Of a stretch of 64,000 nucleotides of DNA, positions 23,880 through 56,607 are shown one piece after another. Each line of letters begins with the position of its first letter. The stretch's first letter is position 1. The translations under genes and the position numbers were made by a program. The stretch lies in the IMG/VR virus record IMGVR_UViG_3300031867_000003, positions 128,001-192,000 of that record, one strand, 5' to 3'. The notes under the pieces were generated by a model that did not search any database, had not been told where the DNA came from, and worked only from the letters and a program-made list of their open reading frames with translations. The DNA is from a virus (lineage: Duplodnaviria; Caudoviricetes).

Positions 23880-25098
23880 TTATTCGTCTTCCTCGTCATC
23901 TTCAACAACATAGATGCTATAAAGTCTCTTATCAGCGTCGCAGTAAGAAACCTGAAGCTGTCCATTAAAGTCGATAGTTTGGTTGTCGGAACTCAGTGAC
24001 ACTTCGCTTTCCGGCGATACCTGGAAGGACGGAATGTCGATATATGCTGCACGAAGTGTATCTGCGGAGCAAGGATCGACACAAAGAACCTTGAGAATAA
24101 GACGGATAGTTCCCGGGAACTTATCAGCTTTATTAATCATCTCAACAGCACCAGCTGTTGCGGCTGTGCCGTCAAGTTCACGATCATAACGAATCATGTA
24201 CTGAGTATAATCGTTGCTAAGCGGAAGAGTAAGAACTCCCGTCCCATCATCATAAGTAAACGTAGAAGCTGTAGCACTACCACCAGTCTGGAATGCAGTA
24301 CCAAGAGTACCGTTGTTCTCCATGCCATATACCTTCGGAGTGCCGGTTACATATTTAAGAGTAACTGTCGGACCATTAGATGCCTTAGCAATTGTGATAC
24401 CAGGTGCGGTAATTTTATGATTTGCAGTAGCCTCAATTTTACCGGAACCCGCTTCAGAACCAAGAATATTAAGATTAATGAAAGCGTTAGTTGCGGTAAA
24501 CTCACCAGTTTTTGCTCTCCAGAAACGTTTCACGAGGTTGCCGTCTTTATCGGTAACATCATTAGATTCTGCGGTAATATTAAGAGTAGCTTCCTAAAGC
24601 TAGGTGAGTGTATAGAGAACGTTGCCGTCAAAGTCTTCAGCAGTTGCGACCTGGATACGGTCAATAATCAAATCCTAGTTTTCTTAAAAAGAAAAATGTT
24701 CACATGGGGTCGCTAGTCCCATGTAGTTCTCAAATGAACTTCTTATTGTTTCCAATAAGTACAGACTATATCTTATTCTACAGCATTACCTGTTTAGACC
24801 TAACCATTTCGAGAGTCAATAGCTTACTCCCTACTTTCTCTTATGAGAAATAGTCGTTGAACCTTACCTTACGGTCTTGGCTGCTGATTGCCCATTGTTA
24901 ACGGTACTTAGGATTTAACCATATACCATATAGTAATTTTTTTCTACTTTCGTAGCTCTCACGTATATATCTATTAGATATTGCGTTGTAGCTTCACTAT
25001 CTTTAGGGGTTCCCAGCAATTAGATTAGTTATTATAATTATGACATATACATATTTCTATATATGCTGACTAGATTATTAATCAAGCTTGAATGCCAT
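23880..25098 (-). CDS. Major tail (tube) protein, 270 aa; exon 1 25098-25081, exon 2 24674-23880; 2 TAG
   Basis: AAAGGAG RBS. The spliced product reads MAFKLD|DLIIDRIQVATAEDFDGNVLYTLT(Q)L(Q)EATLNITAES and continues into ORF 23880..24533. Function is inferred from position and composition. Confidence 0.8.
24675..25080 (-). ncRNA. Group I intron in major tail gene (406 nt)
   Basis: P1 CTTGAT/GTCAG with U.G; P AATTGCTGGGAA, Q GGCAATCAGCAGC, R GTTCAACGACTA, S AAGATATAGTCT; terminal G; P10 AATC/GATT. Confidence 0.93.
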
Positions 25099-26545: not shown

Positions 26546-29282
26546 TTACAACGCAATGATTTCAATTGGCAACGAAGCAATTATATCTTCGCCGTCAACT
26601 TTATATGTTACAGTAAGTATTTTGCCGATATACGAATCGTCTCCCAAGAACTTAACCTTAACATGATTATCTATTACAGATAACGTCAGCAATTCTTGTG
26701 GAACAGAATTCCCGTCTATAGAAAATTCCCAAGTACCGGGAAGTGTATCTATCGACGTACCGTCTTCGTCGGCAAATACCACGGTGAATGTTTTGGCAGA
26801 GCCGCCTATACGAATCTGCTGTTTACCTGAGCATGTAATTGTAGTAGTGGTAGTGGGAGTTGGGATAATATCATCTACCGGAACAGCCGGAGTAGGTTCT
26901 ACTTCACTAGCTTTCCAATCCGCCCACCAAGCAACTACATTGCCATCAACATCATAATCAGCTTTAAGTGTATGTTGATTAGCAAGATCTTGCGCACAAG
27001 TAAAAATCGCAATTCCTTTAGAATTTGAACGATTTATTTTACTAATCTAAAATACGCGAGGTTCTGTTAATACGTTGGCATCTATCACCAAGTAAGTGTT
27101 ATAATATAAATGTTCCGTATCACGATTTAACGGAAGACAGAACTAGGTCTAGTCTTCTGGTTGCTAAAATTTATACATATACGTTACTTTATCAAGTCGT
27201 TAATTTGATAAAGAATTATTTAATTCATTTAAAAAAGCCAAATACTTAGAATGTTTTCTTTCTAAATATCTATTCGCATCATAGTATAACCAATCCATGA
27301 TTTTTATTACATTCTTTTTGCTTAATGTTTGAAGAACGGATGTAATATCATTTTCCTCTGGATGAGCGAGTTGAAGACTTAAATTTACACCTAATTTATT
27401 TTGAAATATTTTATTAACACTATTACAAAAATCAAATGTAGATATTATCTTAAATCCACACCTTAAAAGCCCATTATCTTGAAACGTATAAAAACTTCCG
27501 TCCCCGTCAAAATAACCCCTTATAAAATGTGAATGTAAAAAATCTGGAATGTCTGGGAACGTCAACATCAAACTTTTGTTTTGAACCATTCCTTGCTCTA
27601 CTAAAGAATTTGATAAATGTTTACTTGATAGTTCTAAGCATATCTATGGTTTAACATTATCAGCTTTTATTAATCTATCTCCAATATACGAATCTCTTTT
27701 AATAATTTGTCGCAGTGGTCTATTAGATCCTATATCTTCACTAAATTTTTCTATTATTTCACGATCATCAATTTGTAAGTCTAAATGTATCGCATTCCTA
27801 GGAACATTATTACAACCATCCGCATACAATAATCCCAAGTAATATGCCTTATCTTGGGTATCTATTATATCAAAATACTCTTCATTTAATGAATATTTTC
27901 TACGACCAGGATTCTTTATTCCTAGATTAATAAATAATTCAGATATAAATCTCTAGCTAACATTATTTTCTTCAGATAATTTTTTAATAGATTTCCCAGA
28001 CTTATATTCATCGATATGGTTATCAATATTCTCCAAAAACAATTTTCTATTGTATTTTGCATCTTTATTATACATATAATTAATCCTCCTTCAAAAGATA
28101 TAATGTATGCTATAATAAAAACAGTAATTTTTATGTTGAAGGCATAAAAAAACGGTTTGCAACCCGCTGTCCTGTTTTTATTCAAAATGATTAAATAATT
28201 TTTCTTATACTTTCATATAAGATCGGACTATATCTTTAACCGCAATTGCGGTTACTTCCCACTGGACTTACTTGAGCCACTTAGTCTCTGAACTTTACCC
28301 TCATCAAGTCTTAGCTGCTGATTATCCAATATAATATATTTTTTGACTATCACGCTTAGATGTATCTCATTATTACGTTGTAGTTATACTATCTCTAAGG
28401 AAGTTCCAGCAATTCAAGAAGTTTTCATCGTATTATTACTAATACGTGCGACTATTTCTAATCGAGCCATAATCCACTCATTATGTTATCATAAGGCTTT
28501 TTATCCTTATCTCTTACTGTCGCCAGTAAGATCAGCATATGTTTTCTCCATATCATTAACTTGACTTAGGAGTCGGACACTCGTGGGAATATTATATTTA
28601 TTCAATTCCTATGCGTTACAATACTTCGCAGCCTTTCGCTATCTGCGAAGTTATCTCGGCGTTGTCTACGAGAGAGTTCCACCGATTTTGCCCGATTTTC
28701 ACTCATAAGTTTCCTTATAAGGCAACAATTTTTATTGTAAGAATTTTGGCTCCTGCTGACCCCAGGGAACTCATAATATTTCCCATCTTTAATCCAGCGG
28801 AACACTTCGTCACAACGAAGTACTTCCCAAGTCGGAAACATATTTTCATCCCGGTCAGCTGTAGCAACCACTAACCATCTACGGTATATGTCATCTTCTC
28901 CCTTTAGCCAAACATAAAGACCAACTGGATATCTAGCTCTATACCGCTTACCAAACACTTCTTCGTAATAATCAACACCGCACTCATGACCTGGTCTAAA
29001 CTAAATATGCATAGTCTATTCATCTTTTTGAAATGTCTTAGAACTATGTGCAATAAATTTCACATCTATAGGGGTTGGATTTGTATCCTCTTCCGGGTTA
29101 AATCCTTCAAGACGAAGTCTATTCTGCGGCGCGGTATGGTAGTAATCGAAGAAATATCCAACCTAATACTAAACATCCTATGCAAACGTAGCATCCATGA
29201 TTACATCACTTTGCTACTTCCTCGCCCTCCCCGGTACACTAATATTATTGTGCATTGCCTAAAAATCTCTGTAGGTAATCAT
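26546..29282 (-). CDS. Putative head-tail joining protein, 398 aa; exons 29282-28734, 28478-28461, 27175-26546; many TAG
   Basis: The spliced junctions read GVSRSQNSYN|SGLWLD|YKF(Q)QPED(Q)T(Q)FCLPLNRDTE; all three exon lengths are multiples of 3; AGGTGA RBS. Confidence 0.82.
27200..28075 (-). CDS. Intron-encoded double-motif LAGLIDADG homing endonuclease (291 aa, TAG read-through)
   Basis: AYYLGLLYADG and HFIRGYFDGDGS motifs in one frame; GAAGGAGG RBS. Confidence 0.9.
28114..28182 (-). promoter_or_regulatory. Three-way-junction RNA motif, copy 2
   Basis: P1 AATAAAAACAG/CTGTTTTTATT; P2 GCGG-GTTGCAAA-CCGT; P3 TTTTTATG-CCTTCAA-CATAAAAA. The loop is complementary to TTGAAGG at the endonuclease RBS. 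Confidence 0.7.
28479..28733 (-). ncRNA. Group I intron (255 nt, no ORF)
   Basis: P1 CAAT/GTTG with U.G; AAAATCGGTGGAA (P), CGCCGAG (Q), variant P7 GCATA/TATGC; terminal G. Confidence 0.85.
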
Positions 29283-32604: not shown

Positions 32605-34173
32605 TTACTAACAAACTAATTTTTCTTCTTCTATTTTTTGCCAAGTTAAACGAGTACCATCTGGAAGATGCCCAGATGTTTTTCTACCATTTCTAAAATA
32701 ATTAGTTATAGAAGCATGATACTTTTTATCGGCAGCGGAATATGAATCAAATATTTCTCCAGTCTCAACGCATAAAACCTTGTTTGGGATATTCCCCAAC
32801 ATCTTATATCCATGTTGGCGATTCAATTCAATTATCTCTTCTTTTGATTCTTTGATTAATCCGATTGCAGAAGCCTTATATAGCAATTCCCTCGCAGAAT
32901 AATCGCTTATTCCTAAATCCTTACAAATCTGATACAAAGACTTCTCTTCATATGAATTCCATAAATCAGATACTTTTAATAAAATACTCTTTGAGGCAAT
33001 TTTATCAATTTCGTCAAAATCAATACCAGACAAATCAAATATATTTGAAAGAATTGAATTTTTAATAGAATTTATAATATAATCCCTTTTGTTTTTACTC
33101 CCATAATTATAATCAAGCCTAATAATTGTAAACCCATGTTGTATAGCCAAATCGTCTTTAATCATATCTTTAGCTATGACATCCTTGGCAGTTTGACCAG
33201 ACATATTATTGTCGCAATAATGAAAACCACCATCTACCTCAATAATATATTTAATATTATTATGGCAAAACATGAAATCATATCTCGATAAATCCACCCA
33301 TTTAGGAATATATTGATACTCATATTTAATATTTAAACTATCAAGCATAGCCATTATAAAACGTTCCCCATAACTCGTTTTGTTACCACATAACTCACAA
33401 CTAAACCCTCTCAATGAAACATTATTAACTAATCTTTTAAATTTATGTCCACAATCTGGACATAGCCACCATATTTTAACCCCAGAATTAGGCGTATACT
33501 TAAAAGCGTCCTGTGGTGAAAGCAAAAACTCTTCAAGGTCAGGTCTTAAAGTATGTATGTCATTAACATTGGTCATAGGCCTAATTCTGACTTCAGGATT
33601 ACATAAAGGACATAAACAATTGCCTTTATATAATAATGTCTGAATTGCTCGAGAGAAAACAGTCCCGCATATATTATGTCTAATTCTCATTGTTTGATGA
33701 GCATTTTTATATTCGTCCAATGGAATATATTCATCCCCATACAAATCATAAAAACGTTTTAGAAATTCCTCGTTTGTTAATTTTTCCGAATTATAACAAA
33801 TTGGGCATCCTTTCCCAGACATCACCTTACTAGGCGTAGTTTCTTTTTCATGCCCACACTCCAAATATTTAACTAATATTGGAGTTTCATGATTTATATA
33901 TTTACCAAGTATTTCATATCTGCCCGGATATCTATTCTCAATCTTTTCAACAAATTCATCGTGGGTCACCCTATATAAATTCTGACAAATAGGACATCCA
34001 AACCCGCCTAAGAGATTCGACGGACGAACCTCATTTTCATGGCCACATTTATTATATTTAATTTTTACCTTAGTTTTTGCATTTATATAATCACCAATAA
34101 TGGTATACGTGTCTGGATATTTTTCATTTAATTCATTTTGGAATTCTTCGGTTGTTTTCGCTTTTCTTGGCAT
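32605..34173 (-). CDS. Zinc-ribbon repeat protein with Vsr/DUF559-like endonuclease domain (free-standing HEG-like)
   Basis: Repeated CGH..GCPIC units and RYDF...IIEVDGGFHY; ends TAG-TAA. Confidence 0.8.
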
Positions 34174-36685: not shown

Positions 36686-37002
36686 CGGCGGAGTTGGGAC
36701 TTGCACCCAAACCGACGGGCTCAGAACCCTGTAGTTTTCTTACCACATTATGTTTCCATAACCGAATATTATTCGTTGTAGTCTGGGACATCTCATTACC
36801 ATATTTAATAATATATTAAACTTAGGTAGAAGCTCTATGTCCTCCACACATTTATAAGATATAATAATCTTAATTTAGCTCGGGATTGCCATATACAAAA
36901 CGTACTTAGGTGTTCCCCGAATTAGGCTTCTTTTCAATTGTATTTTTCAACACAATGCTCCAAAACATCAGAGACTACCTGTGCTGCTTACACCACTCCG
37001 CT
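36686..37002 (-). tRNA. Amber suppressor tRNA (anticodon CUA) split by a group I intron; exons 37002-36970 and 36738-36686 (86 nt mature, CCA not encoded)
   Basis: Spliced form: acceptor AGCGGAG/CTCCGCC, D arm GTGT-AAGCA-GCAC, anticodon arm GTAGT-CTCT|AAA-ACTAC, extra arm GGGTT-CTG-AGCCC, T arm TTGGG-TGCAAGT-CCCAA, G73. Confidence 0.85.
36739..36969 (-). ncRNA. Group I intron within the tRNA anticodon (231 nt)
   Basis: P1 exon CTCT / IGS GGAG with U.G at the splice site; P10 GTTTT/AAAAC; P AATTCGGGGAA, Q GGCAATCCCGAG, P7 GGACAT/ATGTCC; terminal G. Confidence 0.88.
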
Positions 37003-37060
37003 AAAACAATAAATTAAATTATTAACGCAATGCCACGTTAAATCCATCAAATAAAATAAT

Positions 37061-37084
37061 AGAGCGGGAGATTAGTCCCGCTCT
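37061..37084. terminator. Hairpin (terminator or processing site) upstream of the tRNA
   Basis: AGAGCGGGA-GATTAG-TCCCGCTCT perfect stem. Confidence 0.5.
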
Positions 37085-37094
37085 AAATTACTAA

Positions 37095-37502
37095 TTATAA
37101 ATATTTGTCATAAAATTCATCATTAACTAAATCAACAACTTTATCAAGAATATCAAGGTTTTTAATGGCATCATTTAATTCTTTATAAAGATATCTATTC
37201 GGAACAGGATTATGTGCTACGTCTCCATAGACACGAAAATCATGCTCTGCACAATCTACAAAAGATTCACATTCAGTTTCATCTATATTATAAAATACTA
37301 CGCCAACTGTCTCTTCATATTTCCCGGTAGAATCATTATATTTGCAAATCAAATAATTATCATCTGGATAATCTGTAGACTTAAACCATGATATAATTTC
37401 ATCACCTGGTTCATTATCACAACTATAAATAACATCATAATCAACACGATAAACCGCACCACATATACTTAATATATTATTTAGTTTTAGAATTTTATAC
37501 AT
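37095..37502 (-). CDS. Hypothetical protein (135 aa)
   Basis: AAGGAG RBS; open ORF. Confidence 0.65.
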   Translation of the reverse strand: MYKILKLNNILSICGAVYRVDYDVIYSCDNEPGDEIISWFKSTDYPDDNYLICKYNDSTGKYEETVGVVFYNIDETECESFVDCAEHDFRVYGDVAHNPVPNRYLYKELNDAIKNLDILDKVVDLVNDEFYDKYL

Positions 37503-37528: not shown

Positions 37529-39109
37529 TTACGCAATTGTACTGCCCGTATTTCTACTTCTTTCAGCACTACCGCTTAAATCATCATCGTCCGACCTAGG
37601 TCTTCCGACCGTGTTACTGGAAGTATTATAACTTGATTTCAAAGGTTTCATCATATCTTTGATACCAATAGCATTCTCAAACCTAATCTTGTTAATTGCC
37701 TTATACGGTGTTCCTTCAATAACAGATAAATAGTCCAATGCCGGACCACCTAATGTTGCGGAATCTTTATATCTTTGGATATAATCATCCTCATTAAACC
37801 AGGTTATTCTCAATATCTCAAAGATATACCCCTTAGATATATTTTCCGCAATATAAAAATTCAGCCAAGATTCCAACCTATTTACCCAGACCCACACATT
37901 TGATTGATCCGCAAGCTGAGCAAATTTAATAGCTAGATTAGAAGTAGAATTTCCACCGGACACAACTGTTTGTGTTAATCCGCTGTTGGAAAACAGATTA
38001 TTTATAGATTTCGCTAATGCATCTGTATCCGACGCATGTGACGTATCATTAAACGTAATTTTATCAATGTCGAACGGAGCAGTAATAACACCGACCAAAT
38101 CCGGCACTGACTGTTCCTCAAGCTGTCGAAAATAATTAACCATCTCCATTGAGATAGCAAAATCATCAACATCCCCGCTGTTACCATTATCCACTAACGG
38201 TATCTTATTCACAATCAAAGCATAATTCTCAAGTTCTGTTTTAGATTGAAGAATCTGCTGCAAATCAAGTAAATCTAATAAATCCGTAAACAGCGGAAGA
38301 AAATATGGCAATGGGAACGAGAACTCATCTTCCGGACCAATCAATAAAACACAACATTTTTCAGGCGGTAATCTAAACCATTGATAATCACGTCCGCCAT
38401 CCTTATATGAACGGTATCCGTTAATAAATACCTCATCCCAAGTTGCATAACTTCCTTGCCCATCAACTCCGAGAACAAACTCACTGTTGTTAGCAGCGTC
38501 AAAAAATGCAGCATTAAAATATACGACCCATTCTCCATACTCATTTTTTCCGACTATTCTGCAATATTGAACGTCTAGCGGCATTAAAAAAGTTCTTCCT
38601 TGTTTATTCTCATAAACGTACCCAGCATAAAATCCGTCACGGATTGCAAGATATAGTGCGGTATACATATCTTTCTTCAGACTAAACTTGTCAAAAGTCT
38701 CGAGTACTTTTTGATAACCCTTGAGCGCCTTATCCACATCTATCTCTTCGGCTAAATCATTTGCTTGAGTAATTGTATAATAGAACAACGGCATCGCCGC
38801 CATATACATAATCATCTTTTGATACAACATTGAATTCCTAACTAAAAATCTCGAAATTTCTCGAAGAGTATCTTGATTGTTAGCCGGAGACTAAACATAT
38901 GTTTTTACGAGATCTTTAGTATATTGCGTGAAAGTTCTGTTTACAGACCTAGTGGCATTACGCTGAAGAATTTCTTCCATCTTGGCAAATGTCATCGTTT
39001 GCGCACGATCACGCTTATAAGAAAAATCCTCCACATCCGCGGGGATTGTAGTTATTTTAGTTTCATTATTTTTGGGGCCGCCGTCAGCGGTTTTCTTTCT
39101 TGTTGCCAT
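37529..39109 (-). CDS. Portal protein (526 aa, TAG at codon 73)
   Basis: Fragments 38891..39109 and 37529..38830 are in frame; follows terminase; C-terminal PLKSSYNT..VGRP is typical; AAGGAGGTG RBS. Confidence 0.85.
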
Positions 39110-39124
39110 ACGGCACCTCCTTCA

Positions 39125-40882
39125 TTATTTAAATCTGGTTACTTTTCTAGGTTGGCGGAATGTAAATTGAGAGAATAGAGAGTTTATATCTTGGTTTTTC
39201 GGTCTCAACTTTAACTCCAACTAACACGCACACCAATAATTATAAGCAATAGAAGAGTAACGGTCTTTACGCATACCTGACTATTCTTTAACTTTAATGT
39301 TACCATTCTTAACCTCATGATCGAGTTTAATTAATTCATACTCTGCCATAGTTGTTTGCAAATACGGCATCTTTATATATGCCTAATCAGTCGGAGAGAG
39401 TTTGGAATAGGGTTTATATAATTTTACCAATTCCTCTTCACATTCTTGTTCTGAAATAAGAAAGCTAATTCTACCATTCTATATTCCATTTCTAAGCAAT
39501 ACACATATTTCGTTATTGAAAGTTGCACCAGCTTTTACTGACCAAACAACTTTATTTGCATCTTTAACTTTACATCTAATAGCCATGTCTTCATCATTAA
39601 TGCACGTTAACGCTTTATATGTTTTTCCAGTCGAAGAATCATATTGATCCTTACAAATAAAATCGAAAATTCCAATTCCTAGTCCTCCTGTATCAACCAC
39701 TAAGTCAGTGCATTTGTATTCATAGAAATAACGCATAACAATAATCCCAAGTTCGTCAGTTGTTAACCCTTCGAAAGTTTCTCCGTAAACTACATTTGAA
39801 TGATAACTTATGTCATCCTACTGAATCGCACTATTGATATATAATGCAGCTGCGTCATTCTTCTTTTTCTTTGTTGATCCCATAAGAGCTACGTCAACAG
39901 AAAGAATTCGTTTTTCTGTTGCAGAAACATCGGGGACTTTGATTTTATCATTATAGAATTTTAGTGGTAATAAGGCGTTTTTGATTTTTCTCTATTTATT
40001 TATCTCTTCCCACTTAAAGAGATTATCACCATCATCTCCGACCCACATACATTCCATTTCCATAGTAAAAGCAAGTTCATTAAAGTCAGCTTCTGATTTT
40101 TCATCCATTACTTGATCTTTGGACAAAAGACCTTCTTTGATGCTTAATTGATATGGTAGTCCACAGCAAAAATATCTCTTAGTGTCATCGAAAAAATTAA
40201 CCACATATGCTTGTAACTTTTTCCATGCCCATGAACTTTTAAAATAAGCACTACTCATATATATTTCTTTATTTCTTTCTTGCAGATGAGAATACTCTGG
40301 CTTATTTAAATATCCCGGCTATCTAGGACTCGTTAAAAATTTACGAATAACCAAATTCAAAATAGTCTCATCAACCATACGAAACTCATCAACTACAATG
40401 ATATTCGCTCTAGCACCACGAGCATTATCTGTACTAGTTCTTGTTGTAATCCAAGAACCATTTTTAAACATAATAATTGCATCATTCTATCCTATGTTAC
40501 ATTTTTCTATTTCAGTACATAAGATAGGAGACATTTTCATTAGTTCATCCTGTATTTTTAACAATACTCCATTTGCCTATTTAAGAGTACCGGAACAAAC
40601 AACAATCTTACTACCAGGATATAATATACATCTTACAACACAAAAGAGCGCAGTAAGCCAACTTTTTGACATACCCCTTGCGGCAATAAACATAAAGTAA
40701 TTATAATGCATCATCGCCCATATTAATATCTTCTAAAAAAGCTTAAGGTGTATGCCTAATACTTCTTCAACAAACCGCTCTGGATTTGCACGATAATAAG
40801 CTGCTCTAAAAGCAACTGTCTACATTATTTTCTGTTCTTTGTCCTGAGCAATTTCACGAACAGATTTCTTTTTTTCAGCCAT
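39125..40882 (-). CDS. Terminase large subunit (585 aa, multiple TAG)
   Basis: LKLF(Q)KI, Walker A ARGMSKS, Walker B IIVVDEFR, coupling motif YMSSA, RNase-H motifs LSVDVA and KDRYSS. Confidence 0.93.
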
Positions 40883-41937
40883 CACAATTCCTCTGTGGTT
40901 CCGAATATCTGATCAAATAGAGTTTCGGAATCTGTATCTTCATCGTATTGTGGTTTATCAACTGTGTATTTTTTGATAAACTTTTCATACGTATGAGAAA
41001 ATGCATTTTTTAGTCCCATCATACGAGACATATGACCTTTAAAAAATACATCAAGATAAAGTCCTATTTTATTAACTGAACGAAATTCTTCGTCAGGCTC
41101 AGGAATAGGTTTTTCATTTTCCCATTTTTGTATCAACTGCCCAAATGTTTTAGCCTCTGTAAGTGCATTGGAATTATTTTGATTAGGTTTTAATGACATA
41201 CTCCCCATTAAATCTTGAAGCGTTTTATCTAATTCCTTTGTATCTTTACCAGCCTTTTGGGCCTTATCTATATCTAGTTCTTTAAAGCATATACGTTTAA
41301 ATAATATTTCTTGTGCCTTATTTTCACAAGCATAACGCTTTATCCAATCTTGATATTCTGTCTCTAAAAAAATTAAATCAGAATTTGTATACCCATCACC
41401 AAATCGTTTTTTGGCTTGTTTCAGAGTTCTAGAATTTTCGTTTATCTCTTCCTCATCTTTATCGAGATAATCAGGGGGAAATTCTGAGTCTCTCCAGCTT
41501 TTATTTTTATACTGAAACAGACTTTTTACCATTACGATATACTGACTCCATGCGGTTCCTCTATGTTTATCTTGTATATCCTCAGAGGTAGACGAAACAG
41601 CAGATTGATATAAAGAATCAATATAGGGCAAATCCATCATTCTAAGTACATCCATTGTTTTATCCCGATTATCAGTATATTGATTCGTTTTCTTATCATA
41701 ATCACAAGCCATTTTAATTAAACATTTTTTGCAAATTGGAAACAGCCCACTTGAGTAACTTTTATCCGAATAAAAAGCATCGGTATTGTGGAACTCATTA
41801 CATTTTGGACATAGAAATACATCCCCATTTATTATGCGATTATAATCCTTAGCTAATTTATTATATTCTTGTCTAACCTAAGCGACCCCAGTTTTTCTAA
41901 TTTCCTCCTCTGTAAGTGCTTGTTTTAATCTAATCAT
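40882..41937 (-). CDS. YonG-like protein upstream of terminase, possible small subunit (351 aa, TAG at codon 20)
   Basis: Read-through extends ORF 40882..41712 with CPKC...CKKC; TFGQLIQKWENEKPIPE motif. Confidence 0.7.
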
Positions 41938-43067
41938 AAAATACCATCCTTTTTATCATAACTCCACTTATATCCTTTATAACTATCTATAATACCCTTG
42001 CAACAATCACTTATGTTGCTCATATTAAATCCATCAACTACAACATCGGATAATCTATTATATGTTTTAATTAGTACCCCATCCAAATCCAGTTGTAATA
42101 TTTTTCCACGATATCTTTTTCTAATAGTATTACATAACTCATAACATTTTTCAGGAGTAAAATAATCTAAATCTTCCTCATAACAAAATACAAATCCCTT
42201 TACTGTATTTCTTTTCCTCTGACAACATTCCCTAACCATCCTAATATGAAAACCACTCCGTGTAACATCATGCATAGAATCATACATTTTTACAATAGCC
42301 CCATTTTCATCTAATTGAACAACCCTTTTAGCCTTCATCCTATTATGTACATTATTTATATATTCTAGATATTCATCTGTTAATATATAATAATCATCCT
42401 CATAAATATAAATATAACCATGAGACACCAAAGTCCCATTAGTCCTTGATCTTATTGGATTATATCCTAATTCTAATCTCGCTATTTTACACGTTTCCCA
42501 TTTTTTAAGAATATTCCCAGATAAATCACACTGTAGTACAGGTGCAACTTTTCTTTCATCAAAATACCACTGCAAGCTGTCAAAGCCATGATAGTCTTCT
42601 AAGAAACAAAATATATATTTGTCTACCCTCTTTATTTTTTTATGCACACATAAATATATTGCGCTAGGATCTATATTTAGTTCTCTGGCGGCCTGCGGGA
42701 CATTGTTCCATTCTTTAATTAGGTTTCCAGACAAGTCAAATTGTAATACTACATGTATACACGAAGTACCTTGCCCTCCAAGAGTATTATTGTACCCATT
42801 ACAATCAACAAATCCGTGATATGTCCTTAATCTATCTATCCAATATATTTCTTTTTCGTCTAATTCATTTTCATTACATAATTCAATAATGGAAAAATCA
42901 AATTTATTTTCACCATGCTTATTCCACGAACTCTACAGATGACTATTCCCATGTTGATTCTTATTTAACAGCCTTTTATGGTCTTTCCATCTTCTGTTAA
43001 TATCAACAGCTTGACCAACATACATTTTCCCATTATCCAAATTAGTAATTTTATAAATTCCAGTCAT
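41934..43067 (-). CDS. GIY-YIG homing endonuclease with NUMOD1-like repeats (377 aa, TAG)
   Basis: MTGIYKITNLDNGKMYVGQA..RRW..HL(Q)SSWNKHG..GYN; repeated VLQxDLxG units; AGGAGG RBS. Confidence 0.9.
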
Positions 43068-43087
43068 AACATTCCTCCTTTTCATAA

Positions 43088-43117
43088 CAAAAAAGAGAGG
43101 GAGTGATTTCCCTCTCT
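43088..43117 (-). terminator. Rho-independent terminator
   Basis: AGAGAGGGA-AATCAC-TCCCTCTCT followed by a T-run. Confidence 0.7.
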
Positions 43118-43163
43118 AAGCAGTTATTCCGTCAGAATGTAGCCAGTATCATCACTGGTAAAT

Positions 43164-44413: not shown

Positions 44414-45002
44414 TTACCAACCCAAAAAGTCAGTATTGATAATATCTCCAATCATACCTCTATCAAGGAATTTAGTCCCCTTATATCTAAATTGATGGCG
44501 ACCGGTTTCATCCTAAAAGCAGAAGCAAAATCCGTGATTATCCTCGTCTATACACAGAGAATGATGTGGACCATGCTCATCACTCTGAATAAGCCTATTA
44601 CCTTCCTCATCAAACTCCGGCTCACCGATAATCATTGGGAATACATCGCCCTCAACGTGAGGATAATCCTCAATATAATCATAAGCGTACTCGGCAGCAA
44701 TAAAATAATAGTCCGCCTCACAGTATACGAGCATCTTATCTCCCACATATTTCTCGGGGTCTGTAAACGCCGGCTGTACCAAAATAGTACGTTCGTCAAT
44801 GCTAATAATATACGGCCCATTATCTTCTTCGGTAAACTCGGAACAATCGCTAAGTTCGCAGCCGAAGCGGATTCCAATATTGATGAAATCCCTAGCATCG
44901 TCGTAATCGGCGATAATCGGCGATAATTGCAAATCTCAGTTCATCGTCCCAATAATCATTAAAGAAACAATCAACGTCTCTAATAATTTCAACATTTCTC
45001 AT
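44414..45002 (-). pseudogene. Acidic hypothetical protein frameshifted by a 10-bp tandem duplication; 1 TAG
   Basis: ATG 45002 with AAAGGA RBS; ATTATCGCCG is duplicated at ~44904-44927; removing one copy fuses FAIIADYDDAR and the frame reads to TAA 44414. Confidence 0.65.
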
Positions 45003-45047
45003 AATAATCCATCCTTTTAATCATAGCGGTCAAGTTAGGCAAATTCA

Positions 45048-46265
45048 TCATTGCTTAAACTTAACATCATATATACAATCAAGGCCTTCATTCTCATCGA
45101 TAACAAGAACAGTCTGCTCGGGGTAGTTATTTAGTCGCTTACTTATTGCAAACGAATCAGTACCGGACAAACAGCCGGTTTGCACAACTTTAACGTTGCT
45201 CCTGGTCATATAAGCATTGGTGTGTCGATGACCGAGGAGAATTAAATCCCACTTAATTCCTGTCAACTGATTAAGGTTATCAATGACATTATCCGGGGTA
45301 TCTTTGTCGCCATGGACAAATGCCACATTCATACCGCGAACGGCAAACATCGCAATACCTTGTTCAATGTCATTAGTATGGAAAGTAACATTCTTAAAAT
45401 TCTGAAGTTTAGCACTCAAGAACGGAATCACCAAATTATCAAAATTCTCATGATCGAGACTTTCTTTAATGTTTGGAGTAATTCGTGAGTGATTCCCGGG
45501 CGCCACATATACATTTACTTCATTAAATCGGTAACTAAGTGCCGCAATAAAATCTGCAACATAATCCATCACCATAAGAAACTGGTCAATCAAATCTTGA
45601 TTATTCTCGATACGGAGAGTGGAATGAATAATTCCCGATAGCATCTCAGATAGTAGTACGTAGGCGTTCTGACAACCATGAATAAGTTGTATCTCAAATA
45701 TACGGTCAAGGTAATGGTTAAGTCGTCTTTTTAACACATCCTCGTTGTACTCATTCCAAAAATTCTTAATCTCGAGACCGGCATGGACATCGGATAACGG
45801 AATAATCATATCTTTATCAGAAGTAATAGTGCCATGAAAACGAGCATTGTCCTCGTACTCCAGAGCGCGAGAATCCGCAGCATCAGTAATAGAACGAACA
45901 AACTGCTCCATATAGGATTCCTTCCGCGCTTGTTCGCGGAGTAATCGCCTATACTCATTACGCTCATCGCGCACCTTGACACGTTCTTTCTCCAGTTCTC
46001 GGCGAAGTTCGCGCAGCTCCTCGGCGTCCGCCGATTGAGTAGCGTCACCGAAATCCTCGCGGAATTTACGAACCAGTGCATACTTCTTCCTAAAAACTGA
46101 ATCCGTAACATACTCGTCCGGGTTATCATTGAGTTCTTTATTAATACACTCGGCCAACTCGGGCCAAGTCATATCAATAAGTCCTTCATATTTTTTATCC
46201 CCCAGTCGGGTAATATACTGGAGTTCTGTTTCTCCGGGTAAACGTTTGGTAATTTGTTCAATCAT
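45048..46265 (-). CDS. Calcineurin-like metallophosphoesterase (YonJ-like)
   Basis: LSDVHAG, PGNHSR, FVHGD, LGHRH motifs. Confidence 0.88.
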   Translation of the reverse strand: MIEQITKRLPGETELQYITRLGDKKYEGLIDMTWPELAECINKELNDNPDEYVTDSVFRKKYALVRKFREDFGDATQSADAEELRELRRELEKERVKVRDERNEYRRLLREQARKESYMEQFVRSITDAADSRALEYEDNARFHGTITSDKDMIIPLSDVHAGLEIKNFWNEYNEDVLKRRLNHYLDRIFEIQLIHGCQNAYVLLSEMLSGIIHSTLRIENNQDLIDQFLMVMDYVADFIAALSYRFNEVNVYVAPGNHSRITPNIKESLDHENFDNLVIPFLSAKLQNFKNVTFHTNDIEQGIAMFAVRGMNVAFVHGDKDTPDNVIDNLNQLTGIKWDLILLGHRHTNAYMTRSNVKVVQTGCLSGTDSFAISKRLNNYPEQTVLVIDENEGLDCIYDVKFKQ

Positions 46266-46282
46266 TAATTACCTCCCGATAA

Positions 46283-46504
46283 TCATTCCTCATCTTCAAA
46301 GGAATCCGTCAAATCCATCTCGTCCTTAGTAGAAATACTCACATCAATAGCCTCGCCACGGAACGGCTTAAAACAATCTAGAATAGAAATTGTCTTAGAT
46401 TCAGCGTCACCATTAATATACTCAAGAGTGGTACCATCTGCGGAAAGAGTACCTTTAATATTGAACTTAGAATTGACAAGTTTCTTGTATTTATAATTCT
46501 GCAT
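46283..46504 (-). CDS. YonK-like small protein
   Basis: Size, acidic tail and position immediately upstream of the phosphoesterase. Confidence 0.6.
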   Translation of the reverse strand: MQNYKYKKLVNSKFNIKGTLSADGTTLEYINGDAESKTISILDCFKPFRGEAIDVSISTKDEMDLTDSFEDEE

Positions 46505-46531
46505 AATTTATTTCTCCTTTTAATCCATCAA

Positions 46532-46834
46532 TTATTTCTTCACAGATACGCCGGAAGTTTTCGCAGCGTAATCCTTCGCACTTCTAATAGAAGCAAGCAG
46601 TATATCCATTGCCTGAGTCGGCTTAAACCCGGCCTTGGTCAACGCATCATATTTCTTCTTATAATTAGTGGCTTCAACCGCATAGTATTCATCGTTGCCG
46701 ACCAAGTCTTTATACATACCAAAGAGTTCTCCGGCAGCGGAATAAATAATCGGTTTTGCCGCTTTGATAACCCCGGTAACCACGGAGTTAATTTCATCCG
46801 GGTTGGTCATCAATGCTTGTAATAATTCTTCCAT
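46532..46834 (-). CDS. Hypothetical protein (100 aa)
   Basis: AAGGA RBS; open ORF. Confidence 0.7.
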   Translation of the reverse strand: MEELLQALMTNPDEINSVVTGVIKAAKPIIYSAAGELFGMYKDLVGNDEYYAVEATNYKKKYDALTKAGFKPTQAMDILLASIRSAKDYAAKTSGVSVKK

Positions 46835-46906
46835 AATCCTTGTATCTCCTTAAAAAAATACTGCGGAAATCCCCACCCCTGAAATCTCCGCAGTTATATC
46901 AATATA

Positions 46907-47521
46907 TTAAGCAAGTACCTCATCAATTGTAATATCTTCACCAATTATCTTGTCAACGACGCCAAGTTCTTTAGCACGATCTGCGTACATATAAAGCTCA
47001 ACGTCATAATGTTCATCATAAAATTGCTCGTCCATGTTAGTACGGTTAAGAACAAATTGTTTTGCTCGGTCTTCTGCGGAGGAGAAAAAGCTCATTACTT
47101 CCTTCGCTTTTTTTGTACTGTTTGCAATACTTATGGAACCATCGTGCTGCAAAAAGATACTATTAGAGAAGGCCACGCGCTCATGACAAGCCAAGAATAT
47201 ATGATAGCAAGCAGACGCAACCAAAGATAACCCAATGCCGATAACCGGCGTCTTACTCTGGAGAATAACATCCGCAACATTCTGTGAGACGAACGTATCC
47301 CCACCGACACTACTAAAGAATATTTTGATCGGTTTACGCTTATCTACCGGGATATCAACGTCATCCATATTCCATTTGAGAATATACATCACAACGTTTT
47401 CTACCATGTTATCATCAACTTCTTCATTAAAAACGAGAATTCTTTTATTTAAGAACTCTCGATATAATTCATCATATGTGTCCGACTGAGAGCCGGAAAT
47501 CGGCAGTATTAAATCATTCAT
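46907..47521 (-). CDS. clpP: ClpP-like protease
   Basis: KPIKIFFSSVGGD, LVASAC (catalytic Ser), FLQHDG (His), AKELGVVDKI. Confidence 0.85.
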   Translation of the reverse strand: MNDLILPISGSQSDTYDELYREFLNKRILVFNEEVDDNMVENVVMYILKWNMDDVDIPVDKRKPIKIFFSSVGGDTFVSQNVADVILQSKTPVIGIGLSLVASACYHIFLACHERVAFSNSIFLQHDGSISIANSTKKAKEVMSFFSSAEDRAKQFVLNRTNMDEQFYDEHYDVELYMYADRAKELGVVDKIIGEDITIDEVLA

Positions 47522-47545
47522 ATATAATCCCCCGTTAGTTATTAA

Positions 47546-47845
47546 TCATTCCTCACTCATTGCCTTGAGACGAGCCTCGACCTCACGGCGAACACGCTCT
47601 TCAAAATCGGCCTCACGGTCCTGGCGACGACGCTTCATAATTTCATCAAGGTCTTTTTCCAGTTCGGGGGTTTTCTCAAAAACAAAAACTGACCGTTTGT
47701 GGTCAGCATCATTTCTGTCAGCCTTAAGATGGGTAATTCTATGCCCCTTATCAAGAAGTTCATTAGCTATTGCAGCTTTTCTTATTATTTTACCTTCAAC
47801 TGTTTCATCATTCGTATTTTGATTAATTGTATTAATTGTTAACAT
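47546..47845 (-). CDS. Hypothetical protein (DUF5659-like)
   Basis: IANELLDKGHRITHLKADR...SVFVFEKT; similar to 49238..49408. Confidence 0.65.
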   Translation of the reverse strand: MLTINTINQNTNDETVEGKIIRKAAIANELLDKGHRITHLKADRNDADHKRSVFVFEKTPELEKDLDEIMKRRRQDREADFEERVRREVEARLKAMSEE

Positions 47846-49203
47846 TATTCCTTATTCTCCTTTTTAATTTCTTCATATGAAAAAAATGTGTTATGGTGTG
47901 TTTTTTGACGCCCGAGACAAACGTCACTCACAGCTTTATGATTATACTTACCGTTTGTCTTTCTTTCCACATCAATACAAGAGTCATAAACACCGATTAA
48001 ATTATAATCCAAATCATAAGCATAAACTTTACGTCTATTTTTTACGGACGGATTATTATTATAAACATTTCGCTTTCTTTCAGCTATAAAATCATAATCA
48101 ATTTCCCCATTTTCATATGCATCTTGCAAAAAAATTTTTACCCTTCTCTTACTTCTGTGAAGAGCTTTTGCAATTTCAACATAATCAGATTCTGGATTAT
48201 TACTTTTGTAATCCATTATTTCCTTCAATATCTTATCCTTTTCCGTTATATAAATAGACTGCGCAAATTTACGATATTTATCTTTATCCGTTTTTAATAA
48301 TCCAAGCTTATCCGCTTTAAGGATATAGTCACGAAATGTATGAAATCCAATATTTAACAATTTAGCCCCATCTTCTTGAGATATACCGCCATCAAATAGT
48401 TTAATGGCTTCTAAAAAATTAGATTTATTCGCAGCTATTTCGCATTCAGTCCAGTTAACATCAGAATCGCTAAAGTTTAATATCTATGGGAGAGAAGACT
48501 CTAATACAGATTTTTTAATATATTCTAAGTCGGAAAACGCACAGTCTAACTCTACATAATTTTCAATGCCATTTAAAATGGCTTTCTCTCTTTTTTCTTT
48601 ATCGTTTTCTTTTTGCTCTTCCAAAGACCTCATATAATTAACTTGTTCAAAATGTTGTCTCCCGTGATTTTCTATTATTAAATTATAATCTGGAATATAT
48701 TGATCATAACGTTTTGTTGGGCTCCATTCAAAAATATGTTCTGGTCTAAATTCGACATTTAATTGTGTTAACATATTCCTAATAAATTTATTAGGATAAC
48801 TTATCCCATCGGAACATATAGGGCATGAAAAACCATAAGTATGTAATTCCGAAACGACAATTTCTTTCACATGTCCGCAATTAGGGCATTTTACTTTGAT
48901 TCTTTTATTTGACTTAGGTCTTACGTTGTCTCCATCCTTAGGGTTTAATAAATATTTGGTTAAATCCGGTCTTAAAGTATTTAAATCATTGCAACCCGGA
49001 AGTACCTTCCTGCCAGAACAAACTGGACATCCATTTTTTAATCTGAGAAGTTGATCCGGTTTTCTTAAAAATTCAAAACCATCATTTAAACATCTTACTT
49101 TAATAGGCACCTTTGAATTTACATACTCCGATAACACCTAAATATTTGGATGTTTCTTTTTTAATCGTTCCACAAATTCTTCATGAGTTAATAATTTTCC
49201 CAT
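47845..49203 (-). CDS. Zinc-ribbon/Vsr-like endonuclease with NUMOD1-like tail (452 aa, 2 TAG)
   Basis: Fragments 48484..49137 and 47845..48360 are in frame; GCPVCSG, KRYDQY..LIIENHGRQH; related to 32605..34173. Confidence 0.8.
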
Positions 49204-49237
49204 CTCATCAGTCCTTTCTTTATAGTACTTTCATTAT

Positions 49238-49408
49238 TCATTTATTATGAGATAACTCCTTCAAATCATTAATAAACTTTTCAGTCACCTCAAAATAAAA
49301 AATAGTTGCACCTCTCCGATTTTTATCAGGTTGAAGGTCAACTATTTTATTACCCTTTCTAACTAATTGTTTCGCAGTATATCCATTAAATATTGGTTTT
49401 GTTTCCAT
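49238..49408 (-). CDS. Small DUF5659-like protein (56 aa)
   Basis: AAAGGA RBS; AKQLVRKGNKIVDLQPDKN..TIFYFEVT. Confidence 0.6.
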   Translation of the reverse strand: METKPIFNGYTAKQLVRKGNKIVDLQPDKNRRGATIFYFEVTEKFINDLKELSHNK

Positions 49409-49424
49409 ATATTCAAATCCTTTA

Positions 49425-50630
49425 TTATTCAAATAACTTAGCAAACAATTTACTTGTTTCACTTCGAACATCTTCCTCTAAATAAATACAAGCAAATTTA
49501 GGATTGCCTCGTAATTCCAAACTCATTTTATTAAGCGCATTATTCTTTGTCGGATTAATGACACTTTGTTTATAGTCACCATTGTAAAAAACCCGAGAAT
49601 TTTCGCCGACACGAGTACCGATTAATCGTATCTGCTTTTCTGTTAAATCCTCGGCTTCATCTACAACAATTACGCTATTGTTATAAGTGCGACCCTTAAT
49701 AAAATACGGAGTATTAGCTTCGATTACTCCGCGCTGAATTAATGATTCAAGTTCAAATTCTCCTCCGTCTAATTGATCGGCAAAGGGCAGTAAGAAGTCA
49801 TAAATTTTGTCTAGTTTCTCACCTGGTAAATAGCCGACTGCCTCACCCTCCGAAATAACCTCGCGAAGTGCAACTATCTTAGATTGCCATCCCTTTTCTT
49901 GAATAGCATAAGTAGCCATACAAGTACTTAGTCTGGATTTTCCAGAGCCGTAGCCACCTAATATTGAAGCTATAGTAATGCTTGGATTATTCAATATGTC
50001 CAATCCACATCTCTGGAGAGAATTCTTACCTTTGATATATTTTGACGGTGGCAGCTTCAACGGTACAAACATCGAACCGTCAAACCGCATTTCCTTAATT
50101 GAATCGTCATCTGTATTATTAATAATGATATACTCATTCGTATACCATTTAGAATAGTCTAAGTTATTCATATAGTTATTAATATACTCGGTATCCCCGG
50201 TAATCTTAACGTATCCCTTATAAATTTCATCCTGATGTTCAAATTCCTCAACGTCTAAACCAAACACTTGCTCGGCAATTACACGACATCCCACATCAAA
50301 AGTAATAAATTTAATAGGAGTTACATTGGTAGAATACCAAGACGCACACGCACAAATAATATTATCCGGCGTTTCGGGTATATTGTAAGAATTGATTAAT
50401 TCCCTAATGGAATTATTATAGACAATGACCTCATATCGGTCTTTGTGATCGTTTAAGAATCGGATTGCTTTACGAGCCGCCGAACGAACATCATCTGTCT
50501 TGGAACGGCTATTTTTAATTTCTTCGAGCTCAAACAATGTTTTATCAGAAATAACAAACTCAACATCTGAGAAATAATCCGGATTCTCAATCAACACATT
50601 AGTATCTAGGAATAGTTTTGCATCGCCCAT
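49425..50630 (-). CDS. phoH: PIN-domain + PhoH-family ATPase
   Basis: FLDTNVLI (PIN), GGYGSGKS, VGYLPG, IKGRTY, VVDEAEDL, GDYKQ. Confidence 0.9.
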   Translation of the reverse strand: MGDAKLFLDTNVLIENPDYFSDVEFVISDKTLFELEEIKNSRSKTDDVRSAARKAIRFLNDHKDRYEVIVYNNSIRELINSYNIPETPDNIICACASWYSTNVTPIKFITFDVGCRVIAEQVFGLDVEEFEHQDEIYKGYVKITGDTEYINNYMNNLDYSKWYTNEYIIINNTDDDSIKEMRFDGSMFVPLKLPPSKYIKGKNSLQRCGLDILNNPSITIASILGGYGSGKSRLSTCMATYAIQEKGWQSKIVALREVISEGEAVGYLPGEKLDKIYDFLLPFADQLDGGEFELESLIQRGVIEANTPYFIKGRTYNNSVIVVDEAEDLTEKQIRLIGTRVGENSRVFYNGDYKQSVINPTKNNALNKMSLELRGNPKFACIYLEEDVRSETSKLFAKLFE

Positions 50631-50660
50631 ACTATAAGCCCCCTTGCGGTAATATAATTA

Positions 50661-50846
50661 TTATCTGGTAAATGTAGTTACATTCTTGGAATTCCTATAT
50701 TCCTCAAGTAACCGTATAGACTTTGGCGATGTAGTTAAGTAATAAACCTTAGCCCGACTTTTATGAGTCGCACTGCTCATATGGATATCTTGACCACGAT
50801 TTTTACTTCTTAAAAATTTTGCCTCATCAGCAGAAATTTTAATCAA
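50661..50846 (-). CDS. Small hypothetical protein (61 aa)
   Basis: TTG start with AAGGATGTG RBS. Confidence 0.6.
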   Translation of the reverse strand: MIKISADEAKFLRSKNRGQDIHMSSATHKSRAKVYYLTTSPKSIRLLEEYRNSKNVTTFTR

Positions 50847-50937
50847 ATATTTTCACATCCTTATAATATATTTTTGATTTTACAAAAAAAATAAAGGGAG
50901 CGCAACAACACTCCCTTTAATAAATAATCAAATAAAA

Positions 50938-51213
50938 TTATGCGTTAACAGCTTCCTTTACGCTTGCACCAAATTTTACCTTCGGCGCTTCTTTAGCCGG
51001 AATAGCAAGAGGTTCGCCATTCTGCGGATTGCGTCCGGTATAAGCGTCTTTGTGAACCGTGTAGAACTTCATCCCCGTAAACGGAGTAACACCGTCCTCG
51101 GTCTTCATAGCTTCTACAATGGCCTCACCGACACCGACAAGGACTTCTTTCATATCCTTCTGAGAAAGATTACACTTTGCTGCACACAGTTTTACAAAAT
51201 CAAGTTTCTTCAT
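50938..51213 (-). CDS. hup: HU-like DNA-binding protein (YonN-like)
   Basis: GRNPQNGEPLAIPAKEAPKVKFGASVKEAV; AAGGAG RBS before ATG 51213. Confidence 0.92.
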   Translation of the reverse strand: MKKLDFVKLCAAKCNLSQKDMKEVLVGVGEAIVEAMKTEDGVTPFTGMKFYTVHKDAYTGRNPQNGEPLAIPAKEAPKVKFGASVKEAVNA

Positions 51214-51377
51214 AATATAGTTCTCCTTTTTTTTCCTTAATATAATTGTATAATTGAATTTACGCCATTCTCGGCAATATAGCGTAAATGTAGTAAACAT
51301 AAGGGTTTGCGATCCCTCATAAATGCTTGAATGGGGAAATTGCAAAATTTCACGTATTTACTGGAATTTTAAGCATT

Positions 51378-54044: not shown

Positions 54045-54377
54045 TTATACCGCCCCCTCAGTGGATAAACCAAATAAATAATCATACAGTTCTTCCGGCG
54101 ATTTCATAGAACGCTTAACACCATGCGGATCGGTATATTCCTGATTGGTTTTACCGCGCCCATAGTTTTTCTCCAGACAAAATGTGGTCACCGCATTAAA
54201 ATCGGCATCTTCCGGAATGAGTAGCTTAAGCAATCTTAACATTGCGTCGTTATTATCCGGTTCAATTAAATAACCGTCCACATTATGTTTTTTGTATAAA
54301 CTGTTTTTTGCATTTTGATAATCATCAATACGGGCCATTGACTCAATCGCCGTTACAAAATCTGATTTAGTTATCAA
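54045..54377 (-). CDS. Hypothetical protein, paralog of 54367..54720
   Basis: Shared N-terminal pattern and ELYDYL/ALYDYL tail. Confidence 0.7.
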   Translation of the reverse strand: MITKSDFVTAIESMARIDDYQNAKNSLYKKHNVDGYLIEPDNNDAMLRLLKLLIPEDADFNAVTTFCLEKNYGRGKTNQEYTDPHGVKRSMKSPEELYDYLFGLSTEGAV

Positions 54378-54720
54378 TAGTATTTCTCCCCTTATTTTTA
54401 TCCATCATCATTATCAAGTAATCATACAAAGCCCCCGCGGTGTTGAGCGGGTACTCTTCTCCGTCAACAACGTTTTTAAATTCGCCGCCATAATACTTGC
54501 CGAAATCCAACTCAAAACAAAACCAACTTATGACTTCCAGCTTATCATCAAACATTGCCTCAAGAACATCAGCCAATTTAAACACACAATTTTGCGGACA
54601 CCAATCAACATAATACCCATCGGAAAATTCCCGTCCGGCTTCATTGATAGCATCATCAAAGCGGATTGTTTGTTCCATAGCAGATATGGTCGCAAGAAAA
54701 GCTTCCTTATTTAATAGCAT
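54367..54720 (-). CDS. Hypothetical protein (117 aa)
   Basis: ISWFCFELDFGK...ALYDYL. Confidence 0.7.
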   Translation of the reverse strand: MLLNKEAFLATISAMEQTIRFDDAINEAGREFSDGYYVDWCPQNCVFKLADVLEAMFDDKLEVISWFCFELDFGKYYGGEFKNVVDGEEYPLNTAGALYDYLIMMMDKNKGRNTIDN

Positions 54721-54733
54721 GGATAATTCCCCC

Positions 54734-55498: not shown

Positions 55499-55513
55499 AA
55501 TGATTAATCCTCC

Positions 55514-56560: not shown

Positions 56561-56607
56561 AGTATTCCTCCAAATTTAATAAATAATTAATTGCATATAG
56601 TTGTTAG

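Follow-up and report, generated by a model that had tools for sequence, protein, structure and literature searches.

A tRNA-Leu-type group I intron within the anticodon of a predicted amber suppressor tRNA of a TAG-recoded phage

Introduction

How does a phage read several hundred in-frame TAG codons in its virion and packaging genes when standard finders report no tRNA with a CUA anticodon? The question is raised by a locus on the minus strand of a 64,000-nt stretch of DNA, called here the window, that corresponds to positions 128001-192000 of the 202,175-bp virus record IMGVR_UViG_3300031867_000003. Phages using genetic code 15 are known to encode a CUA tRNA of their own and to carry in-frame TAG codons, read as Gln, in late genes and not in early ones (Yutin 2021 PMC7886860; bioRxiv 10.1101/2021.08.26.457843; Peters 2022 PMC9523058). 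The present phage resembles them in these respects. Unlike their suppressors, its gene is split and is therefore left unreported by tRNA finders. For recoded genomes without a detectable suppressor, two earlier surveys invoke incomplete records, divergent tRNAs or suppressors of the host (Yutin 2021 PMC7886860; PMC12386605).

Group I introns are known from both phages and tRNA genes. As of 2014, all known phage group I introns lay in protein-coding genes (review PMC3984707). The number of split bacterial tRNA gene classes has been raised to 21 (Williams 2020, bioRxiv 10.1101/2020.01.27.920355). In the literature searched, no description was found of a group I intron in the anticodon of a suppressor tRNA.

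TAG recoding of the late genes

Reading through TAG increased the total length of open reading frames of at least 400 aa from 35 to 84 kb, while the total was 39 kb with TGA and 48 kb with TAA read through. Reading frames on the minus strand between about 84.6 and 171 kb of the genome contain up to 57 TAG codons each. On the plus strand between 3 and 83 kb, 18 of the 24 reading frames of at least 250 aa are free of TAG and the remaining 6 contain one or two. The minus-strand genes at 45000-58500 of the window have no TAG, and those downstream on that strand are rich in it. The large terminase gene (39128..40882, minus strand), with 11 in-frame TAG codons, is an example of a gene that needs a suppressor. 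It is followed by the portal gene (37532-39121, one TAG), which lies between the terminase and the tRNA.

The identity of the inserted residue was estimated at the codon level in five related terminase genes, where the sense codons found opposite TAG were CAA or CAG in 44 of 89 cases, the commonest residues after Gln being His (8) and Met (7). This count was used in place of a protein alignment that gave Gln in 60% of cells, which was rejected as circular because database proteins are translated with TAG as Q. TAG therefore stands for Gln in the late genes of this phage.

The tRNA locus and the surrounding 15 kb had no blastn or megablast match among public phage records, and a Pfam search of the proteins neighbouring the tRNA returned nothing except the terminase. 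Four records with a terminase 85-90% identical (L036-L039) contain no tRNA(CUA) in the terminase-to-portal neighbourhood, the place of the tRNA in the window, and are uninformative on the intron. In three of them (L036-L038), neighbour genes match the Pfam families YonG, YonJ, YonD and YonB, named after the Bacillus prophage SPbeta. On account of these matches, the phage is assigned to an SPbeta-like structural lineage and not to the crAss-like phages.

The split tRNA gene

The first-pass annotation had recognised, from the letters, two tRNA halves separated by an insert. When the sequence was re-read between 36600 and 37100, exon halves and insert on the minus strand matched to the base. Exon 1 (37002-36970) comprises the acceptor 5' strand, the D arm, the 5' strand GUAGU of the anticodon stem and the loop bases C32 U33 C34 U35. 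Exon 2 (36738-36686) continues with A36 A37 A38, the 3' strand ACUAC of the stem, a variable region of 20 nt, the T arm UUGGG-UGCAAGU-CCCAA (36694-36710) and the acceptor 3' strand; the discriminator G73 is at 36686 and CCA is not encoded. The insert of 231 nt (36969-36739), without an open reading frame, begins and ends with G and sits between the anticodon bases U35 and A36. These are exactly the coordinates at which ARAGORN, in intron mode, called a tRNA(cta) and its 231-nt intron.

The anticodon CUA, in the loop CUCUAAA, arises only when the two halves are joined, as had been proposed. On the joined exons, ARAGORN called a cloverleaf tRNA with a CUA anticodon in a 7-nt loop, and the predicted ligated-exon junction reads GUAGUCUCU|AAAACUAC. 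ARAGORN labels CUA tRNAs as Pyl and some of the split genes discussed below as Phe, Glu or SeC; these labels are artefacts of naming or of a one-base shift, and the anticodons of split genes were re-read by the rule of a U at position -1 and a terminal G.

The expectation that standard tRNA finders would miss the gene was borne out. Default ARAGORN reports only a tRNA-Pro in the window, and Rfam at its gathering thresholds reports that tRNA-Pro and three group I introns elsewhere, both being blank at the locus. In the window, tRNA and intron thus both fall under the default thresholds of standard tools. Throughout the whole record, ARAGORN (including intron mode) and Rfam detected no other tRNA(CUA). 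Because the genome is TAG-recoded and no second tRNA(CUA) was found, the phage's own TAG decoder requires removal of the intron as far as these finders can tell, in line with the original proposal that it exists only after splicing.

A terminator-like hairpin (37060..37085, minus strand) closes the upstream gene (37095-37502) and stands 58 nt ahead of the start of the tRNA.

An uninterrupted copy in a sister phage

When the T arm was used as an exact pattern in a scan, the same tRNA turned up in another record, IMGVR_UViG_3300031992_000940 (L003), which was also the sole match to a pattern made from the D arm. At positions 5674-5762 of this record the gene is uninterrupted, with the junction GTAGTCTCT|AAAACTAC exactly as predicted and the same CUCUAAA loop. 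Exon 1 is identical in the two phages, and the uninterrupted copy scores 36.0 bits against the Rfam tRNA model (threshold 29). Against this empty-site allele, the end bases leave no ambiguity in placing the intron boundaries. An intron 3' end at 36783 (CCCAG|ACUAC), suggested by the Rfam alignment, was rejected because the intronless allele puts the junction at 36739|36738.

The sister phage has the gene order of the window, namely an endonuclease-like gene, a YonG-like gene, the terminase (12 TAG), the portal, a similar hairpin and the tRNA. The exons are identical in 85 of 86 bases. The 200-nt flanks show identities of 0.64 and 0.60, compared with 0.59 for shuffled sequence, hence no real likeness. 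Because the exons have stayed nearly identical while the flanks cannot be aligned, the interrupted gene is under purifying selection. Such selection makes sense only if the intron is removed, so that removal would be implied.

The insert as a group I intron

The pairings read at first pass all stand in the sequence. The internal guide sequence GGAG (36958..36961, minus strand, as are all elements of the intron) pairs with the exon bases CUCU (36973-36970), placing a U36970.G36961 wobble at the 5' splice site; this P1 is of 4 base pairs only. GUUUU (36962..36966) can form P10 with AAAAC at the start of exon 2 (36738-36734). P7 is formed by GGACAU (36842-36837) and AUGUCC (36791-36786), and the terminal G is G36739, its boundary fixed by the intronless allele.

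Around these elements a complete core can be drawn. P3 pairs GAAGC (36926-36930) with GCUUC (36829-36833), and P7 encloses its 3' strand together with P8 (36797-36828), so that P3 and P7 make the group I pseudoknot. P4 pairs UCGGG (36916-36920) with CCCGA (36880-36884), with P5 between its strands, and P6 is a hairpin at 36855-36872. In the 3' domain, a helix of ACUAC (36778-36782) with GUGGU (36742-36746) encloses the hairpins P9a (36763-36775) and P9b (36748-36761), the latter with a GAAA loop, and the domain closes with AAG ending in the terminal G at 36739. The core motifs also appear to resemble those of the Anabaena tRNA-Leu intron.

Covariation was assessed with a P2-P9 model in an alignment of five short homologues (A3). 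Pair cells were paired in 93.8% of cases and 30 of the 48 pairs had compensatory changes on both sides. None of 500 shuffles reached the observed level, and partners slid out of register were paired in 35-40%. Changes on both sides affected P3 (5/5), P4 (4/5), P6 (6/6), P7 (3/6) and P8 (3/4), and all cells of P3, P7 and P8 were paired; P9 covaried as well. RNAalifold independently recovered P2-P6, P8 and P9; the P7 pseudoknot is beyond what this program can draw.

In homologous introns, described below, the guide also tracks the exon, being GAG for CUU| and GGA(G) for (C)UCU|. The segment preceding the guide tracks the 3' exon in the same way (UUU/AAAA, UAU/AUAA, UAG/CUAA, and GUUUU/AAAAC in the window). 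The ending GU(A/G)GUA(A/U)G| is common to 12 homologous tRNA introns, all of which end in G.

The Rfam check that had been suggested gave a divided answer. A local 701-nt search with Intron_gpI did match the insert at 29.7 bits (E 1.4e-5), but this is below the gathering threshold of 50. The score exceeds the cut-off of 18-20 bits that was applied to split tRNA genes in Williams 2020, and no bacterial sequence is among the 12 that seed the Rfam group I model, according to that preprint (bioRxiv 10.1101/2020.01.27.920355). The low score, together with a single-sequence minimum-energy fold that differs from the group I fold, would fit some other inserted element or an assembly artefact. This explanation is extremely improbable and already largely refuted, given the covariation that backs the P3-P7 pseudoknot core, the U before the 5' junction and the G at the 3' end, and homologues at anticodon loops in at least 12 independent contigs. 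By covariation, the insert is thus best classed as a group I intron, for which guanosine-dependent self-splicing would be expected from its fold and from the selection on the exons.

One detail of the fold concerns the exons as well. The strands of the intron helix ACUAC/GUGGU recur in the anticodon stem GUAGU/ACUAC (36974-36978 and 36730-36734, minus strand). Because these strands match, and because the stems of the other split suppressors differ, mispairing between intron and exon is possible in this phage only among the split suppressors.

The tRNA body and probable glutamine identity

The tRNA departs from consensus in several places. Its D arm has a stem GUGU/GCAC and a 5-nt loop AAGCA without GG (no G18 G19), while the T loop UGCAAGU (G55) lacks the conserved U54 U55 C56. 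A1 stands opposite C72 and an extra base precedes the anticodon stem. The departures in the D and T loops recur in the intronless copy of the sister phage and, because both are shared, they are taken as features of this tRNA and not as decay. For that uninterrupted copy, the minimum-energy fold fails to form a cloverleaf in the 3' half.

Two other split suppressors (L013 and L034) provided a D-arm and anticodon-stem pattern, which matched 27 loci when used in a scan. They are either ordinary tRNA-Gln(CUG) genes with the loop CUCUGAM or CUA suppressors with the same body and the loop CUCUAAA, most of the latter bearing an added long variable arm. Because their body is shared with phage tRNA-Gln(CUG), the CUA suppressors appear to be derivatives of tRNA-Gln. 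The tRNA of the window shares the D arm of these suppressors (UGGUGUAA...AGCACAG), with a shorter loop. Charging with Gln and activity at UAG would follow the same line.

The variable arm may add to this identity. In the window it contains a hairpin GGG-UUCUGAG-CCC (36717..36729, minus strand) with a 3-bp stem and a 7-nt loop that holds CUG, the Gln anticodon, at 36722-36724 in the register of an anticodon loop. In the sister phage the loop of this hairpin (5716-5728) is UUUUGAG; the change of C to U is the only exon difference between the two phages and UUG is also a Gln anticodon. Similar hairpins occur in the other suppressors: UCA-UUCUGCG-UGA in L013 and L076, where an alternative fold CUGC-GUGA-GCAG is also allowed, UCC-CCCUGAA-GGA in L034, UCC-CUUUGAA-GGA in L060, GCC-CUCUGAA-GGC in L061, L066 and L072, GCC-CUCUGAC-GGC in L075 and UCC-CGCUGAA-GGA in L078. 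YUG is thus at the loop centre in all 8 distinct CUA suppressors with a long variable arm, while the stems covary among lineages, and the sister tRNA-Gln(CUG) genes have exactly the loop CUCUGAA at their real anticodon. It is plausible that the hairpin supplies the anticodon identity element lost through the CUA mutation and would act as a tag for Gln-charging enzymes.

These data also bear on the possibility that the intron does not splice and the gene is dead, TAG being read by a host suppressor or by an overlooked phage tRNA. Splicing is predicted from sequence, the tRNA body is off consensus, and the genome contains two odd tRNA-like genes at other places, all of which would be compatible with a dead gene. 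We nevertheless hold it to be very unlikely: the exons have kept their identity to the intronless allele beside randomised flanks, their sole change preserves a Gln anticodon in the variable-arm loop, compensatory changes have maintained pairing in the intron core, and the unusual tRNA features are found in the uninterrupted copy too. Moreover, a CUA anticodon loop is absent from both odd tRNA-like genes.

These two genes (genome 12087-12168 and 14050-14141, plus strand, on L004) score above the threshold of the Rfam tRNA model. In one of them the anticodon loop is 17 nt long and contains a small hairpin with GAAA, and A1 is mismatched with A72; in the second, the D region is longer by about 25 bases. 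Neither is called by default ARAGORN, and its intron mode calls the first as a tRNA-Val with a 10-nt intron.

The intron family and its other hosts

Pattern scans of phage contigs located homologues of the intron in ordinary tRNAs. In the phage's own genome, a tRNA-Leu(UAA) gene at 11553-11952 (L004, plus strand) is interrupted at the classical site, U34|A35, by a homologous intron of 314 nt (11589-11902), which is 76% identical to the window intron over 123 nt. The 5' part of this Leu intron repeats the AGCGGAC of its exon, and ARAGORN mislabels the gene as Phe(gaa). That the window intron is a recent copy of this Leu intron was considered and rejected, since only 69% of the 3' core is identical and, of all members of the family, the window intron has diverged furthest.

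Besides this gene, tRNA-Leu(UAA) hosts with the junction CUU|AAAA are found in L012, L016, L017, L021/L035, L028 and L029/L033. The family also occurs in a Ser(UGA) tRNA (CUU|GAAA, L018), an Arg(UCU) tRNA (CUU|CUAA, L031), an Ile-like(UAU) tRNA (CUU|AUAA, L015) and two CUA suppressors (CUCU|AAA, L013 and L034). A reading of L014 and L031 as CUA suppressors split at 33|34 was abandoned, the 5' exon of L031 showing CUU|CUAA and hence Arg(UCU). L014 has no ARAGORN call, and its assignment to Arg(UCU) comes from the likeness of its 3' exon alone.

One bacterial match of the pattern is a tRNA-Leu(UAA) with a 210-nt intron in a Gastranaerophilales MAG, and through this match the phage introns are tied to the classical Leu.3Ug family. 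This family is assigned to subgroup IC3 (Williams 2020, bioRxiv 10.1101/2020.01.27.920355).

Split and uninterrupted suppressors

Among the 27 loci, 7 related CUA suppressors are uninterrupted (L059, L060, L061, L066, L072, L075 and L076) and 4 are split at CUCU|AAA, by inserts of 253 nt (L013), 224 nt (L034), 252 nt (L062) and 977 nt (L078). In the L013 and L034 records, TAG is the only in-frame stop codon of the terminases. The insert of L062 (2578-2829, minus strand) belongs to a different type of group I intron, one nearer to the Rfam consensus (31 bits), and L059 is its exact intronless twin. The insert of L078 (5850-6826, minus strand) encodes a 272-aa HNH endonuclease and is putatively a group I intron. 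The four split suppressors bear at least three different introns.

Other structured RNAs were observed near two of these genes. A ROOL RNA (299 bits) lies at 6054-6628 of L013 (minus strand), with the split suppressor of that record a few hundred bases away, and two RAGATH-1 hammerhead ribozymes lie at 9820-9897 and 10129-10203 of L078 (plus strand), about 3 kb from the suppressor of L078.

Such a distribution bears on whether the intron is an evolved gate, whose slow or conditional splicing would delay the TAG decoder and so time the TAG-laden late genes. No tRNA(CUA) was found besides the split gene, which stands on the late strand right after terminase and portal; on that strand, the upstream genes at 45000-58500 of the window are TAG-free while the downstream ones are full of TAG. 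In addition, expression of suppressor tRNAs has been proposed to time late genes in recoded phages (bioRxiv 10.1101/2021.08.26.457843). Yet in the sister phage, whose genes are ordered alike and whose terminase contains 12 TAG, the tRNA is free of the intron. Related suppressors are intronless in 7 cases and split in 4, by at least three different introns of which one contains an HNH reading frame. Members of the same intron family reside in ordinary tRNAs for Leu, Ser, Arg and Ile, which have no need of a gate, and the distribution is the pattern of a selfish mobile element. An adaptive switch of this kind is consequently unlikely.

Most likely, the window intron is a mobile passenger rather than an evolved switch, because introns are sporadically present or absent among related suppressor genes in several lineages and because the amber loop, CUCU|AAA, is similar to CUU|AAAA, the target in Leu(UAA). 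Scattered over multiple lineages in this sporadic way, the introns look like mobile elements that have invaded a favourable site again and again, and not like a conserved regulatory device. Even with a passenger, maturation of the only detectable decoder would here depend on splicing. A broader scheme would make amber (and opal) loops natural landing sites for tRNA-Leu-type introns, CUCU|AAA mimicking CUU|AAAA, let splicing kinetics time the code switch, and thereby late-gene translation, where the only suppressor is split, and join the Gln-loop identity tag to it as a two-part device; taken together, this is rather unlikely.

Proposed maturation and relation to known systems

The locus is very probably a working amber suppressor gene of a phage that reads TAG as Gln, split between U35 and A36 by a 231-nt passenger group I intron of the tRNA-Leu(UAA) type (IC3) without a reading frame. 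The precursor would be transcribed on the strand of the late genes and the intron would fold into P1-P10. The guide GGAG would pair with the loop bases CUCU, the U35.G wobble marking the 5' splice site, at which free guanosine would attack. GUUUU would then align exon 2 (AAAAC) through P10, with the terminal G at 36739 setting the 3' splice site, and ligation would yield the loop CUCUAAA with the anticodon CUA. Once charged with Gln, the mature tRNA would read the in-frame TAG codons of virion and packaging genes. Autocatalytic splicing, Gln charging and UAG suppression are the three steps that we infer in this scheme.

The nearest known system is the bacterial and plastid tRNA-Leu(UAA) intron (Leu.3Ug, CUU/a...g/AAAA). 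Both introns are small, without a reading frame and located in the anticodon loop, with a U-1.G pair in a short P1, a P10 that involves the A-rich loop bases on the 3' side, a P3-P9 core and a terminal G. Unlike Leu.3Ug, which splits U34|A35 and has the guide GAG, the window intron interrupts a phage stop-codon suppressor one base further on, at U35|A36 (which would be 'Sup.4Ug' in the Williams notation), with the guide GGAG to match CUCU. A classical intron family is thus encountered in a new setting, a phage stop-codon decoder split at 35|36.

Introns in phage tRNA genes have been observed in other recoded phages. The tRNA genes of Lak megaphages contain 'enigmatic' introns, in sense tRNAs and with no group I class assigned (Devoto 2019 PMC6784885), and a 2026 survey repeats the finding of tRNA introns for jumbo phages (PMC13037316). 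As in the present case, the phages are recoded, presence varies between close relatives and boundaries are set by intronless copies. These introns are found in Tyr and Thr tRNAs, some being proposed to encode another tRNA, whereas the window intron splits a suppressor anticodon and is, by covariation, a group I ribozyme. In the same way, theta (HDV-like) ribozymes beside suppressor tRNAs of recoded gut phages couple a ribozyme to the maturation of a recoding tRNA (PMC10879173). The theta ribozyme described there cleaves beside the tRNA, whereas that of the window would splice inside the anticodon.

Intron-split suppressors offer a concrete and checkable explanation for recoded genomes with no detectable suppressor. 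The finding extends classical group I introns of tRNA anticodon loops from bacteria and plastids to phage tRNAs and to a stop-codon decoder, the guide sequence being seen to adapt to its new target. It would also tie expression of an alternative code to an RNA-catalysed step. For annotation, tRNA searches that allow for introns should bring such genes to light, along with the correct code.

Other candidate mobile elements of the late block

Free-standing genes resembling homing endonucleases (HNH and GIY-YIG PHROG families) are present at 32608-34173 and 41937-43148 of the window (both minus strand), on either side of the block of terminase, portal and tRNA. They could provide mobility in trans to introns without a reading frame. 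The TAG-recoded late block houses five more group I introns that exceed the Rfam gathering threshold; their hosts are presumably virion genes. Three are within the window (5970-6255, 24742-25093 and 28204-28481, minus strand) and two outside it (genome 122864-123128 and 126014-126294, minus strand). The motif CUACAACG is common to these five introns and to the tRNA introns, at a different position in the fold.
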